Of a DNA stretch of 11,948 bases, positions 3,260-9,670 are shown piece after piece; the first letter of the stretch is position 1, and each line of letters starts with the position of its first letter. The DNA lies in contig CAZFVS010000027.1 of the NCBI GenBank assembly GCA_964522265.1, positions 1 to 11,948 on the forward strand, read 5' to 3'. The translations under genes were made by a program, and so were the position numbers. The notes under the pieces are model-generated. The model made no database searches. It was not told the origin of the DNA and saw nothing but the letters and a program-made list of their open reading frames with translations. This stretch comes from an uncultured Gammaproteobacteria bacterium. GTDB taxonomy: Bacteria > Patescibacteriota > Microgenomatia > Daviesbacterales > UBA10151.

Positions 3260-3913
3260 TTAATTTCCAATTACGCTTAACGTCATTGACATGAAATTAT
3301 CCCCTGCTAAAGTTACATCAACATACATTTTATAAACCTCTTCCTCTTTATAAAAAACTATATAGGGCAACCCTCCATATTTTTCTCCATATTGGGTTGT
3401 CCTGTCCCAACCTTTTAATTTCATAGCCTGCTCGTATGCGCTGTCAACTTTTTTGGGAAAATTTACTAACAGGTCCGGATAATTAGGCAAATTAGCATTA
3501 ATACTTTTGGCAAATTTGTAATATGTCAATCCCATATCTGAAAAAGCTTTTTCCCTAACCTCAAAAAAATCATAACTTATTACACACGCTGAAGCTTTAT
3601 CTTCATCCGGAAAGCGTTTCTTATTATATAGAGGCAAAAGCGTTCCTGAGGTACTTTTTCTTTCATAGCTGTGAGGAGGTGGAGGCAGGTCTTTAATCTT
3701 TTCCAGGCAAATTTCCCTGAGAGATTGTTTTTTAGGTGTTGCAGCGGGTGATGGGGAGCTTTTCGGAATATTTGCAGCCTGATTTTGAGAAGGCTTGTTT
3801 AAAAGATTGTTGTTATTTTTTGCGAAAACAAAAAAACCTCCAAAAAGAAATAACAGTAGAATTATCCAGATTGGGGCAAAACCTGCTTGGCGATTTAATA
3901 GATTACGGCGCAT
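3260..3913 (-). CDS. membrane-anchored hypothetical protein, 2-Cys ectodomain (family B), paralog of 9002..9670
   Basis: 217 aa. The N-terminus is MRRNLLNRQAGFAPIWIILLLFLFGGFFVF (basic tail plus one TM), followed by a P/S/A/K-rich linker and a globular domain. It aligns by eye with the 9002 product: EICLEKIKDLP vs KYCKEELVKIP, RFPDEDK vs KFPKDKK, ACVISYDF vs SCVIDYNY. Its ATG overlaps the upstream stop as TAATG at 3911-3915. Confidence 0.75.
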   Translation of the reverse strand: MRRNLLNRQAGFAPIWIILLLFLFGGFFVFAKNNNNLLNKPSQNQAANIPKSSPSPAATPKKQSLREICLEKIKDLPPPPHSYERKSTSGTLLPLYNKKRFPDEDKASACVISYDFFEVREKAFSDMGLTYYKFAKSINANLPNYPDLLVNFPKKVDSAYEQAMKLKGWDRTTQYGEKYGGLPYIVFYKEEEVYKMYVDVTLAGDNFMSMTLSVIGN

Positions 3914-4593
3914 TAAAGCTTAAATGTTTGGATTGAAGCGTCTATATTGGCTTTTTCGTCTTCCCAAATTCCCGCATTACTCATACCAATAACTGCAAAA
4001 AGATATTTTTCTGTTTTTAGCACAATATACCTTCCGTGCATTTTTTCGGTGTTAATCATACCCGTAAACTCGAGTTCATAGCCATCCTGAACACCAACTT
4101 TAGTCTCTTTTTCTCCAATAAATTCAGTGCTGCCAAACTGTTTTTTGAGATAAGCTTTGTGGACATCAGCAATAGTGGCCACCTTCATGTCTTTGTTTGC
4201 ACCTATATCGCCTCCCACAACGCTCACCAAAGCATCTGCCTGGTCAGGACCTTTCTTTTCTGAAGGTTTAAAGAAGGTAGAATTTTCTGCCTGTTCTTTG
4301 ACCTTCCAGCCCTCCGGATAGCTTATAGAATAACCATATTTTGTATTGGAATAGATTTCAGAATTTAATTTAACTGCAGGTTTCGGTGTGTCTGTCGGAG
4401 CGGGTTTTTCAGTTTGGGTTACCGGCTGGTTACCCTGAGATTTATTGGGATCATCTACTTTAACATATCCGGAAAATTTCAGGCTTCCTGAGGCGATAAG
4501 TATGATTATAATTACCACAATCACACCGCCAATTATTAGAGGCGGACTGGCAACAAAACCTGCTGATTTGGTTCGGGCAGAAGAACCTTTCAT
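3913..4593 (-). CDS. membrane-anchored PsbP/DcrB (DUF1795)-like domain protein (family A)
   Basis: 226 aa. It has an N-terminal anchor (TKSAGFVASPPLIIGGVIVVIIIILIASG) and a P/T/K-rich linker. The domain opens with YSISYPEGWKVKEQ and ends with ASIQTFKL. The same start and end signatures occur in the 5502 and 6230 products. Confidence 0.8.
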   Translation of the reverse strand: MKGSSARTKSAGFVASPPLIIGGVIVVIIIILIASGSLKFSGYVKVDDPNKSQGNQPVTQTEKPAPTDTPKPAVKLNSEIYSNTKYGYSISYPEGWKVKEQAENSTFFKPSEKKGPDQADALVSVVGGDIGANKDMKVATIADVHKAYLKKQFGSTEFIGEKETKVGVQDGYELEFTGMINTEKMHGRYIVLKTEKYLFAVIGMSNAGIWEDEKANIDASIQTFKL

Positions 4594-4657
4594 TAATTTA
4601 ATTATTGGATAGAATATAATGACTTGTCAAGGGTCAGTTTGTCTTAGGTTTATATCA

Positions 4658-5407
4658 CTACTTACAAAGAGCTAAACCAGAACCAACTTCATACAGTCCT
4701 GCATCATCCCCGCCATCAGCCAAAGCCTTATCTTGTCCTTCTTCCGATTCAAGTTTAGCATTTATTTCCCAGTTTTTGCCATCTGAACAATAGCTATAAT
4801 GGAATTTTTCACTGTTTGTGGGATCCAAAGGTAGTTCAGGTAGTTCTTTTAAACTCATTTTTAAAGCAATATTGTCTATATTTAATAAATCAACTTTTAT
4901 CCAACCGGATCCATCTAAAAGTTTTGAGGGATTTTTGTCTGAAGTCTCGATGCAGGGAGCTTTTGTTTTTCCACATAACTTGAGGGGAGCGGCTGATACT
5001 TGGCTAGCTATAACCAGAGCTTGATTAATTTGAGCAAGATCAAGTTGTCTCTGGGCATCCCTGCTTCTTTCTGCTAATTTGGGATTGCTTTCAACTATTT
5101 TTTCTCCTATTTTCTTAGCTGTTTCAGGATTTTTTATAGCTTTATAAGTTGTAAAACCTACTAAAACTGCAAAGAAAATACCTATAATAGCCAAGACCAA
5201 CGGGACGGTTAGAAGAATTTTTAACCATTTAGGCCATTTCGTCCAGACATAAGTTAAAATTAAACCGATGGGGTAGGCAAAAATTAATAAGAGGATTGTT
5301 ATAATAGTTTTTGAGTCTTCTGATAAACCATCTTTCTGGGGCTGAGGTTGAGGTTGAAATGGGATATCGGTTTGAGGAGGATTAGGTGTTGCTGGAATAT
5401 TTTCCAT
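4658..5407 (-). CDS. type IV pilin/pseudopilin-like globular domain protein with a non-canonical N-terminus (P/Q-rich tail plus 2 TM, no GFTLIE leader)
   Basis: 249 aa. The C-terminal roughly 135 aa carry pilin-like signatures: ERSRDAQRQLDLAQINQAL (alpha1-C-like), LPLDPTN, YSYCSDGKNWEINAKLES, DGGDDAGLYEVGSGLALCK, with Cys pairs placed like a pilin D-region disulfide. The N-terminus is MENIPATPNPPQTDIPFQPQPQPQ followed by two hydrophobic helices. Confidence 0.8.
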   Translation of the reverse strand: MENIPATPNPPQTDIPFQPQPQPQKDGLSEDSKTIITILLLIFAYPIGLILTYVWTKWPKWLKILLTVPLVLAIIGIFFAVLVGFTTYKAIKNPETAKKIGEKIVESNPKLAERSRDAQRQLDLAQINQALVIASQVSAAPLKLCGKTKAPCIETSDKNPSKLLDGSGWIKVDLLNIDNIALKMSLKELPELPLDPTNSEKFHYSYCSDGKNWEINAKLESEEGQDKALADGGDDAGLYEVGSGLALCK

Positions 5408-5429
5408 GTTATTTTGTTCTAATAAATAA

Positions 5430-8228: not shown

Positions 8229-8255
8229 GGATCCCCGATTAAATCGGGGATGACA
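8229..8255 (+). repeat. short palindromic element of the same family, plus orientation
   Basis: Sequence ggatccccgattaaatcggggatgaca. It has a perfect 9-bp stem, atccccgat (8231-8239) with atcggggat (8243-8251). It shares the GGAT.CCCG / CGGG.ATGACA termini with the 8155-8210 element and faces it head-to-head across an 18-bp AT spacer. Confidence 0.6.
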
Positions 8256-8272
8256 GAGGAAAAATTACAGAT

Positions 8273-8995
8273 ATGAAATATTTAATTATTATAATTGCTT
8301 TAGCCCTGATAGGATTTTTTGCTTTTCCAAAAATAGCTCCGTGGCTTATTGAACAACCTGTTGTCCAAGATAAACTGGAGGAGATTGCCTCTACCAAAAT
8401 TTCCAAAGAACTGGCTTTGGAAAATGTTAAGAAAAGGGCTGAGGTGCAGCAGTTTCTGAAAGATGTTCCGGGCGGGATTGTTGAGGTGGATAATGAATCT
8501 GAAGGGCAGTACAATGTCCATGTTTATGAGATAAAAAATGGGCATACCGCCACTTTTAACTGGTACCGGGTAAGCATAAAAAGCGGCGAGATCACCCCTC
8601 AATTTGAAATTACACCCGAGCAGGAATCTGAAGCTCCCAAAGGCACTGTTACCGGCAAACTTTGCTATCCATCTGAATTCTTACCGAAAGGACTTATTGA
8701 AGCTAAAAGGGTGTCTGACAGCAGTATATTTGTTCAAGATTATCCAGGAAGTATGAATGGCGGCAAATCAACTTATGAATTTGAACTGGAAGAAGGTGAT
8801 TACTATTTAAGGTACACAATTTCCAAACAATTTATCGGTTACTCAACTACGGTTTGCCCAACAGGGATGGAGGAAAGTTGCGGTGACACAAAGCAAAGAG
8901 TACTTAGAAAAGCATCTGTCAAGGTTGGTCAAACAGTTTCAGGCTATAACCTGTGTGATTTCTATTACACAGATGCAAATGCGCCTAAATTTTGA
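8273..8995 (+). CDS. signal-anchored two-domain protein: PepSY-like N-domain plus 4-Cys beta-rich C-domain
   Basis: 240 aa with N-terminus MKYLIIIIALALIGFFAF. The segment ISKELALENVKKRAEVQQFLKDVPGGIVEVDNESEGQYNVHVYEIKNGHTATFNWYRVSIKSGEI follows the PepSY-type pattern. The C-domain, GTVTGKLCYPSEFLP...YYLRY...VCPTGMEESCGDTK...VKVGQTVSGYNLCDFYY, has four Cys. The domain names are low confidence. Confidence 0.8.
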   Translation: MKYLIIIIALALIGFFAFPKIAPWLIEQPVVQDKLEEIASTKISKELALENVKKRAEVQQFLKDVPGGIVEVDNESEGQYNVHVYEIKNGHTATFNWYRVSIKSGEITPQFEITPEQESEAPKGTVTGKLCYPSEFLPKGLIEAKRVSDSSIFVQDYPGSMNGGKSTYEFELEEGDYYLRYTISKQFIGYSTTVCPTGMEESCGDTKQRVLRKASVKVGQTVSGYNLCDFYYTDANAPKF

Positions 8996-9001
8996 CAAAT
9001 T

Positions 9002-9670
9002 ATGTTTAGACTGCCCAAAAAACAAGCCGGTGCCCTAAATTTATTTTTAACACTTATTATCCTTTTTGGCTTTGCAATAGGTTCATGGATATTTTTTAGA
9101 AAACCAAACTTCTTTTTCCAGTACCAAAAACCCCAGCCTACTCAAACCGCTAACCAATCCCCTGCTCAATCCAAACCTGTTGCTGATAAAACTGTTGATA
9201 AAAAAGACCCTAAATGGTTAGAGAAATATTGTAAGGAAGAATTGGTTAAAATTCCGGACGCCCCATTTAAATATAAAGAGAAGGAGGATATTGTTGGTAC
9301 TTTGGGTGACCCACTTATCTTGGGTAAGTTCCCCAAGGATAAAAAGTATCAAGGAAAATCCTGTGTAATAGATTATAACTATGAAGATGAAGAGGCCTAC
9401 GCTTCCGTTGGGGTGGCATATAAATTTGACATCAGGTTCAGAAACCAGTTTGAAGAAGCAGTTGATAAACTTATTACTTCAAAAATGGATTCTTCCTGGA
9501 AAAAGATTTCTCCCGTTAGCAATAAGGAAGGCGGAAGGCCTTTTTATAGTTATAAAGGATTCCCCTTAATTTTTACCAGGGAAAATTCTGCAACAGGAAC
9601 TGTAGATTATGTTGATTTTAACTGGGGAGCCAAATCCTTATTTGTTACCTTCTCAACCTATGAGAAGTAG
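9002..9670 (+). CDS. membrane-anchored hypothetical protein, 2-Cys ectodomain (family B), paralog of 3260..3913
   Basis: 222 aa. It starts MFRLPKKQAGALNLFLTLIILFGFAIGSWIFF, followed by a Q/P/T/K-rich linker. The domain has the two conserved Cys (KYCKEE, KSCVIDY) and the KFPKDKK motif shared with the 3260 product. Confidence 0.8.
   Translation: MFRLPKKQAGALNLFLTLIILFGFAIGSWIFFRKPNFFFQYQKPQPTQTANQSPAQSKPVADKTVDKKDPKWLEKYCKEELVKIPDAPFKYKEKEDIVGTLGDPLILGKFPKDKKYQGKSCVIDYNYEDEEAYASVGVAYKFDIRFRNQFEEAVDKLITSKMDSSWKKISPVSNKEGGRPFYSYKGFPLIFTRENSATGTVDYVDFNWGAKSLFVTFSTYEK

Follow-up and report, generated by a model that had tools for sequence, protein, structure and literature searches.

We analysed an 11,948-nucleotide stretch of DNA, hereafter the window (contig CAZFVS010000027.1 of assembly GCA_964522265.1), and in it a divergent cluster of eight genes at positions 3260-9670, which we named g1 to g8 from left to right. 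An earlier sequence-only reading had described this cluster as a module of the cell surface, and the eight open reading frames (ORFs) are present as it had described them, g1 to g3 on the minus strand and g4 to g8 on the plus strand. The products comprise a PsbP-like family A (g2, g4 and g5), a second family B (g1 and g8), a polytopic membrane protein (g6), a PepSY protein (g7) and a chimeric pilin-like protein (g3). The window has a GC content of ~38%, and its closest relatives are Candidatus Daviesbacteria genomes, which belong to the Microgenomates of the candidate phyla radiation (CPR). A locus from a close relative, L001, was used for ortholog, substitution and blastn comparisons. The ratio of nonsynonymous to synonymous divergence (dN/dS) against L001 was 0.06-0.28 for all orthologous pairs (0.12 for g2, 0.075 for g4, 0.06 for g7 and 0.11 for g8), showing that these are functional genes under purifying selection. 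The g7 and g8 products are 94% and 91% identical to their L001 orthologs, versus 67% for the flanking bPH gene. Synonymous divergence was ~0.46-0.53 for g6, g7 and g8 (7683-9670) and 0.9-2.6 for g2, g4 and g5 (3913-7678) and the bPH gene; the lower g6-g8 values suggest recombination, a more recent common ancestry or strong codon constraint.

The g6 gene (7683-8216, plus strand) encodes a 177-amino-acid (aa) polytopic protein with five transmembrane (TM) helices by hydropathy, oriented N-out/C-in by charge, with a conserved outer loop (NWExFxxxGRxG) and conserved polar residues in or near the TM segments. Its start is likely the ATG at 7683 and not the TTG at 7656, because the ortholog start (MEY...) is conserved. 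The protein belongs to no Pfam or NCBIfam family, and a full scan of 1.84 billion representative proteins returned only 28 representative clusters of relatives. As g6 is an uncharacterised polytopic protein, the earlier statement that the cluster encodes no transporter cannot be asserted. The g7 gene (8273-8995, plus strand) encodes a 240-aa protein with a TM segment, a PepSY domain and a beta-sandwich. Residues 42-107 score 25.6 bits against Pfam PepSY (PF03413; cutoff 24), which places g7 in this family. In an AlphaFold2 (AF2) model (predicted local distance difference test, pLDDT, 77), helices at 45-64 are followed by strands at 69-109. The PepSY domain covers residues ~45-109, and the beta-sandwich follows with four invariant or near-invariant cysteines (C131, C195, C203 and C228). 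The sequence-only label of g7, PepSY with four cysteines, is thus borne out by the profile score and the cysteine count. More than 130 homologs of g7 were found, and a Foldseek search returned only generic Ig/transthyretin-like sandwiches and YpeB.

Gene fusions tie g6 and g7 firmly together. Nine of the 28 g6-family representatives carry a g7-type PepSY domain at their C terminus (E values from 1e-21 to 6e-34), the polypeptide reading g6 (five TM helices), a further TM helix and the PepSY domain. Family A appears to be joined to PepSY in the same way: sub-threshold PsbP_2 matches recur N-terminal to PepSY in 6 of 10 long g7-type proteins tested. Several such proteins of 255-275 aa exist, also at loci L003 and L012, so that the A domain and PepSY are probably linked by fusions as well. 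The spacing of the genes is tight: g1 overlaps g2 and g4 overlaps g5 by 1 nt each, and g7 and g8 are 6 nt apart. As called in L001 and L018, the g6 and g7 orthologs share 4 nt; in other relatives they overlap or are separated by a few bases. Taken together, the fusions and the tight spacing speak for g6, PepSY and A working together physically. The g6::PepSY fusions resemble PepSY_TM proteins (PF03929; FoxB/PiuB-type) in combining PepSY and several TM helices in one protein. However, g6, g7 and seven fusion proteins showed no PF03929 match at E<=1 and g6 has no histidine, which makes a FoxB-type haem ligation impossible; a PepSY_TM/FoxB-like reading of the pair was thus rejected.

Family A comprises g2 (3913-4593, minus strand; 226 aa), g4 (5502-6230, plus strand; 242 aa; E 2e-83 with the A hidden Markov model, HMM) and g5 (6230-7678, plus strand; 482 aa). 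All three exceed curated Pfam cutoffs and belong to the PsbP/Mog1 superfamily (PF01789, PF18933): g2 scores 37.8 bits against PsbP_2 (cutoff 27) and 30.8 bits against PsbP, g4 scores 24.9 bits against PsbP (cutoff 23.5) and g5 scores 33.4 bits against PsbP. Searched against the PDB, the A profile retrieved the lumenal extrinsic subunits PnsL1 and PsbP, with E values from 1.6e-6 to 1.4e-4. The g4 protein is 29% identical to the N-terminal half of g5 (E 3e-23) and also matches its C-terminal half (E 2e-7) and g2 (E 2e-5). After a TM segment, the A HMM delimits two tandem domains in g5, at residues 23-279 (E 3e-69) and 308-482 (E 2e-35). The paralogy and the double domain of g5 proposed from the sequence are therefore real. 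The g2 protein consists of a TM anchor or signal, a conserved juxtamembrane ASGSLKFSG motif, a linker and the PsbP-like domain; g4 has a Q-R-G-I motif with a TM segment, the conserved juxtamembrane motif YLIRNEFVKTGKSGK, a linker and the PsbP-like domain. Orthologs of g2 occur in L001 (77% identity), L008, L012, L003 and L010, and those of g4 in the same five loci and in L014. The L001 ortholog of g5 (6784-7914) has one full PsbP-like domain and a ~90-aa remnant where g5 has two full domains; the number of PsbP-like domains in g5 thus varies between close relatives.

Family B comprises g1 (3260-3913, minus strand; 217 aa; E 1e-44 with the B HMM) and g8 (9002-9670, plus strand; 222 aa), which are 27% identical (E 3e-10), so that the family does lie on both arms of the cluster as had been proposed. 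The g1 protein combines an N-terminal Q-A-G-F motif and TM segment, a P/S/K-rich linker and an alpha/beta domain with two cysteines (C69 and C110); g8 combines a Q-A-G-A motif and TM segment, a Q/P/T-rich linker and an alpha/beta domain of ~150 aa. Alignment of the homologs showed that C77 and C121 of the g8 domain are invariant and that an FTREN motif is conserved; the two invariant cysteines of the family probably form a disulfide. The 29 homologs of family B come from CPR lineages only (Daviesbacteria, Gottesmanbacteria and WWE3), and g1 orthologs occur in L003 (48% identity) and L001; a remnant of the 3' end is found next to g2 in L001. Neither g1 nor g8 matched a known family in Pfam or NCBIfam, and no PDB sequence match was found. 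The AF2 model of the g8 domain has a pLDDT above 90, and a search of the PDB and BFVD with the fold returned no significant structural neighbour (best E 3.6e-3, TM-score ~0.3). The list of weak structural matches is dominated by the PsbP/DUF1795 members LpqN, DcrB and Eag chaperones. We considered B as a divergent PsbP-like paralog of A and rejected it: hhalign gave 78% (E 1.8e-5) for the full-length A-B comparison, solely from the common N-terminal anchor, versus just 0.3% for the domains alone. The globular domain of g1 and g8 thus has no detectable sequence or fold similarity to the PsbP/Mog1 superfamily. In sum, the domain types of A, g7 and g3 are known, while B and g6 are orphans.

We compared the gene order in three independent samples: species-representative genomes seeded with B, three large Daviesbacteria contigs seeded with g7 (L017-L019) and 64 metagenome loci carrying the g7-PepSY signature. 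The order B(-)A(-), followed by the divergence point and A g6 PepSY B(+), was found in two other lineages, among them at L008; the full mirror layout is repeated at the metagenome locus L030. Variants include A(-)A(-)|g6 PepSY ... B (L012), A A PepSY .. B B (L010), B|PepSY A A (L014) and PepSY B A (L009), the bar marking the divergence point. The WWE3 loci L002 and L013 have B then A, the Gottesmanbacteria locus L003 has A A|B B plus one more B and a PepSY gene close by, and all three g7-seeded contigs have A(-)|g6 (A) g7. Among the metagenome loci, g6 is adjacent to or fused with g7 in ~31 of 64. Of the 27 loci with enough flank, 19 have an A gene within 3 kb, as do 12 of the 16 whose flanks reach at least 5 kb on either side. 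B stands almost always beside A or PepSY, and orthology by subtype (g2- versus g4-type, g1- versus g8-type) holds fixed positions across lineages. Thus the homologs recurrently co-localise in Daviesbacteria, other Microgenomates, Gottesmanbacteria and WWE3, as the sequence-only reading would have it. From these comparisons, the conserved core is g6 and g7 with A proteins, B being a frequent but narrower accessory. The mirror symmetry noted earlier exists at the level of gene families but not of DNA, where no inverted repeat was found; with paralogs only 23-29% identical, this discards a recent inverted duplication. Searches of Pfam, NCBIfam, PADLOC, PHROGs and the literature yielded no known system of this make-up, in line with the sequence-only reading; the literature searches found nothing relevant on PsbP together with PepSY or on PsbP in Patescibacteria. 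Clusters of the typical CPR A/B/PepSY kind at L010, L012, L014 and L015 have been deposited under metagenome-assembled genomes labelled uncultured Gammaproteobacteria or uncultured Pseudomonadales, which probably reflects mis-binning or mislabelling.

Where in the cell do these proteins act? The PsbP and PepSY families are extracytoplasmic elsewhere. The cysteines are confined to the globular domains, in even numbers that are invariant across homologs (two in B, four in g7 and four in g3), and the MdbA/VKOR disulfide machinery is enriched in CPR bacteria (PMC6744442). From the cysteine pattern, this machinery and the precedent of the families, we infer an extracytoplasmic topology. The claim that all eight products share one layout does not hold for g6, which has no stalk or globular domain, nor for g3, and the linker of g7 also deviates. 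Likewise, a basic N terminus is not common to all, that of g3 being acidic and proline-rich. The proposed P/T/S/Q/K-rich stalks were found in the linkers of g1, g2 and g8 and between the two domains of g5 (51-59% of these residues versus 34% overall), but not in the g7 linker, and g6 has none.

The anchor is the sole region common to A and B in the hhalign comparison, and a short motif, [K/Q/R]-x-G-[F/I/V/A]-x-x-P, directly precedes it in g1 (3880-3913), g2 (4560-4593), g4 (5502-5545), g5 (6290-6330) and g8 (9002-9048). In its general form, a polar residue followed by G-[FIVA]-x-x-P before a TM segment, the motif occurs in ~31 of 44 A and B proteins versus ~10 of 102 other N-terminally anchored ORFs of the same loci. 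The WWE3 and Gottesmanbacteria homologs lack it. We wondered whether these N termini are prepilin leaders. None of the five matched N_methyl (PF07963) at E<=10 or has a glutamate at +5, and a true prepilin used as control matched at 3.6e-9; membership in the prepilins was thus rejected. The glycine motif is also found on other envelope proteins of related genomes, for example at L019 14173-15729 ('MKKQKGFALPG...').

Our best explanation, which we hold tentatively and at a little short of an even chance, is that Daviesbacteria-type CPR bacteria inherit the cluster vertically as a module of the cell envelope, whose products make up an extracytoplasmic complex that scaffolds or regulates an envelope process. 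A single complex at the outer surface of the cell membrane probably unites the g6, g7, A and B products. Its core would be g6 and the PepSY protein g7, a single polypeptide in many relatives, to which one to four PsbP-like ectodomain proteins and often one or two copies of B would be added. In such a complex, g6 would form the base within the cytoplasmic membrane. The PepSY domain of g7 and the A and B ectodomains would be exported and kept at the membrane by their N-terminal hydrophobic anchors, and, like PsbP and PnsL1, would bind as extrinsic subunits both to one another and to g6 on its outer face. The assembly might then scaffold, stabilise or regulate some process of the envelope; an enzyme of the wall or membrane surface whose gene lies elsewhere is the most plausible target. 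The analogies with PepSY proteins that partner wall enzymes and with the docking of PsbP and PnsL1 suggest such a scaffolding or regulatory role and not adhesion.

Several observations weigh against this account. Only 4 of the 16 g7-seeded loci have B within 5 kb, so that it is no obligate partner, and many loci with a g7-type PepSY gene have no g6. No wall or lipid enzyme was consistently adjacent in the gene tables of the related loci. For g4, g5 and g8, the charges on either side of the TM segments give no clear orientation. Conserved motifs of small residues where the hydrophobic segment ends (ASG|S, AGG|T) are possible signal-peptidase sites, so that some A proteins may be released and not tethered. 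The description of the products as membrane-tethered may therefore apply to part of them only, cleavable signal peptides being possible for others.

We weighed three other explanations. The proteins may be co-regulated and exported without interacting, their clustering reflecting a common regulation or a history of duplication. A and B are indeed paralogous expansions, the composition varies between genomes (four architectural classes), B is often absent and hypothetical membrane proteins abound in CPR genomes. However, the g6::PepSY and probable A::PepSY fusions speak for a coupling, physical or functional, of at least three components, and the overlapping or closely spaced genes suggest translational coupling; together with the subtype-specific orthology in fixed positions across lineages, this makes a non-interacting set somewhat unlikely. 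The sequence-only reading had favoured a surface module for adhesion or host contact, in which stalked ectodomains bind a host or partner and paralogs provide binding diversity. In its favour, the products are predicted to lie outside the cell and have linkers rich in P/T/S/Q/K, the number of copies and domains varies between genomes (two domains in g5 versus one in L001, B duplicated at some loci) and a protein with a pilin head is inserted in the cluster of the window; moreover, the membrane families enriched in CPR bacteria are generally thought to act in cell-cell interaction (PMC6744442). On the contrary, the genes are under strong purifying selection (dN/dS 0.06-0.11 for g7 and g8, which are far more conserved than the bPH gene), and the ectodomains are small (~150 aa) on linkers of 30-60 residues, with no adhesin-type repeats or known adhesin domains in Pfam or NCBIfam. 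At L017-L019, the cluster lies amid housekeeping genes: S6/SSB/S18 (L017 and L019), YchF (all three) and RuvABC (L017 and L018). To our knowledge, neither PsbP nor PepSY families are adhesins. Thus the part of the earlier reading that saw a dedicated surface module stands, in the sense of a co-inherited extracytoplasmic module and not a chance neighbourhood, but adhesion or host contact specifically is unsupported, and we consider it unlikely.

We judge distinctly unlikely the capture and uptake of a ligand, in which the PsbP-like and B ectodomains would bind a small or hydrophobic ligand (a scavenged lipid or wall precursor, for example) and hand it over to g6, the presumed channel or carrier. 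One version of this idea gives the proteins leaders of a non-canonical class III (prepilin-like) type and has them assemble in the manner of an archaeal bindosome. The PsbP/DUF1795 members LpqN, DcrB and Eag chaperones bind lipids or TM helices, g6 has its conserved outer loop and polar residues near the TM segments, the glycine motif of the ~31 of 44 A and B proteins resembles a prepilin leader, and the hhalign similarity of A and B is confined to the anchor. But no ATPase, permease family or type IV pilus gene lies nearby, and g6 has only five TM helices, no match to a transporter family and no histidine. The N termini also fail the N_methyl profile that the control prepilin matches, none has the glutamate at +5, and the motif is absent from the WWE3 and Gottesmanbacteria homologs. 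Less probable still, and offered as a long shot, is that the glycine motif is a CPR-specific sorting signal, a class III-like leader of the prepilin-peptidase type devoid of Glu5, with which the A and B ectodomains assemble on a g6/g7 platform as a bacterial counterpart of the bindosome, the leaderless and permanently anchored g3 being a lineage-specific add-on.

PsbP and PnsL1 are docking subunits on photosynthetic membrane complexes. Like them, the bacterial proteins DcrB, LpqN, Mtc28 and TiME are extracytoplasmic or lumenal accessories that dock on membrane complexes or handle hydrophobic ligands. Family A resembles PsbP and PnsL1 in its Pfam matches above cutoff and its PDB matches, but has no photosystem or NAD(P)H dehydrogenase (NDH) context. 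It is anchored by an N-terminal TM segment and not by a lipobox or a transit peptide, and it differs by its 3-4 paralogs per locus and by the tandem two-domain form of g5. Membrane-anchored PepSY proteins (TseB, CopD, YpeB and SspA) partner penicillin-binding proteins (PBPs) or lytic enzymes in envelope morphogenesis (PMC10653890). TseB/YpmB, CopD, YpeB and SspA, from Firmicutes and Actinobacteria, have an N-terminal TM anchor and an extracytoplasmic PepSY domain like g7, and are non-enzyme partners or regulators of envelope enzymes (PBPs, SleB; PMC10653890); YpeB is among the structural matches of g7. The sequence similarity of g7 to these proteins is at the domain level only. These known proteins have two or three PepSY domains, whereas g7 has one and a 4-Cys beta-sandwich; it is also linked, by coupling or fusion, to a novel 5-TM protein and lies in a cluster with PsbP-like proteins. 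The morphogenesis factors TseB and CopD, with a single TM segment and two PepSY domains, pair with a PBP; no PBP gene adjoins g7.

CPR bacteria (Patescibacteria) make up a large share of bacterial diversity, and their envelopes, which mediate an episymbiotic life, are almost wholly uncharacterised; most of their lineage-enriched protein families are hypothetical membrane proteins. The cluster joins several such orphans (g6 and B) with PsbP-like and PepSY proteins into one testable unit, and the Rosetta-stone fusions point to the parts expected to touch. Should the complex prove real, it would count as the first envelope assembly to be defined that is particular to Microgenomates-type CPR bacteria, and the role of PsbP as an 'extrinsic subunit' and that of PepSY as a regulator would reach a new setting.

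The g3 gene (4658-5407, minus strand) encodes a 249-aa protein with a pilin head on a 2-TM hairpin. Its C-terminal head domain is 43-45% identical to genuine CPR prepilins that carry PF07963 (KGFTLVELL...) and has four cysteines and an RDAxR...DL helix in common with them; its profile retrieved pilins from the PDB (E 4e-6). The head is thus homologous to that of pilins, and the pilin-like label given earlier was correct. Compared with type IV pilins and pseudopilins, the leader and G|FxxxE motif of g3 and two homologs are replaced by an extra TM hairpin, TM2 aligning with the pilin alpha1-N helix. No match to N_methyl PF07963/TIGR02532 was found at E<=10 and g3 has no Glu5, so that it lacks a class III leader. 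With the G|FTLxE motif replaced, g3 cannot be processed or polymerised like a pilin. Its N-terminal module consists of a Pro/Gln-rich tail and the extra TM helix with the motif FxYPxGLxLxxxWxKWPxWLK; modules of this type are also found on unrelated proteins (P0042; L010 17308-18192). A conserved trio of A, B and pilin-like genes had been suggested as a synteny check. We ran this check and rejected the trio: g3 was never found in the related loci of the B-seeded genomes, the g7-seeded genomes or the 64 metagenome loci, and the genes around P0031, its nearest homolog, are unrelated. On the evidence of gene order, g3 is a lineage-specific insertion outside the conserved core.

The arms are separated by a 94-bp AT-rich region (5408-5501, 22% GC) between g3 and g4, as described from the sequence. 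This gap holds back-to-back promoter-like sites at 5458-5429 (minus strand) and 5466-5494 (plus strand); the plus-strand site, TTGACA-17-TAnnAT, is matched in position by a site upstream of g4 in L001. The number of promoter-like sites in this region was not above chance (20 found, 16.9 +/- 4.8 expected). A further site, TTGACA-18-AATAAT (4630-4601, minus strand; 11 of 12 matches), lies upstream of g2 in a 47-nt block (4594-4640) conserved with the L001 g2|g4 intergenic region. As a consensus match alone is no proof of function, we regard the site at 4630-4601 as a candidate g2-g1 promoter. A near-consensus site in a conserved block speaks against the proposal that the three leftward genes are read from one promoter region, and they probably use two promoters. 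The match between this block and the L001 g2|g4 intergenic region indicates that g3 was inserted between an ancestral divergent pair, g2|g4, so that the ancestral divergence point lay between these two genes. L001 keeps a remnant of the 3' end of g1 beside g2, which shows that the B-A arm on the left is ancestral and that L001 has lost part of it.

A blastn comparison with L001, where g6 and g7 overlap, also revealed an insertion of ~117 nt between the two genes at 8155-8272 (plus strand). It is GC-richer than its surroundings, lengthens the g6 ORF by ~20 aa and has a predicted RNA fold of -40.8 kcal/mol (z -4.25). No Rfam match was found for the insertion or anywhere in the window. The insertion could represent a small palindromic element, either mobile or regulatory. 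Downstream of g8, the intergenic region contains a perfect palindrome with 9-bp arms, TTACACACC-T-GGTGTGTAA, at 9717-9735. The same palindrome occurs at 9662-9680 of L001, within extra DNA upstream of the g8 ortholog; a search of the other 83 loci did not find it. With a TTGAC box beside it, it resembles an operator site. The extra DNA of L001 (9225-10000) places 777 bp between g7 and g8 and contains an uncalled, very hydrophobic ORF of 126 aa (9230-9610).

No feature marks the cluster as an island, a term used in the sequence-only reading, in the sense of horizontal transfer. GC remains between 0.33 and 0.43 over the whole length and does not shift where the cluster begins and ends, searches of the window for tRNA and for domains of integrases or transposases found none, and orthologous clusters occupy conserved chromosomal neighbourhoods in the related loci. 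None of the eight proteins matched the PHROGs or PADLOC models at E<=0.01. With the flat GC and the lack of tRNA, this led us to reject an origin as a mobile island, phage or defence system. We also rejected the idea that g7, as a PepSY-type 'peptidase regulator', works with the M16 peptidase encoded upstream (541-1788), this neighbourhood being conserved in no related locus. Exact-sequence look-ups of the window proteins matched no record. The flanking ORFs at 9890-11035 (381 aa) and 42-518 (158 aa) matched nothing in Pfam, NCBIfam or PHROGs, the latter having a very weak PADLOC match only (PbeC, E 0.0035). At the right end of the window, 11724-11785 and 11840-11948 each match two places in L001 (12.7-14.7 kb) with 81-92% identity, and these matches identify them as putative dispersed intergenic repeats.

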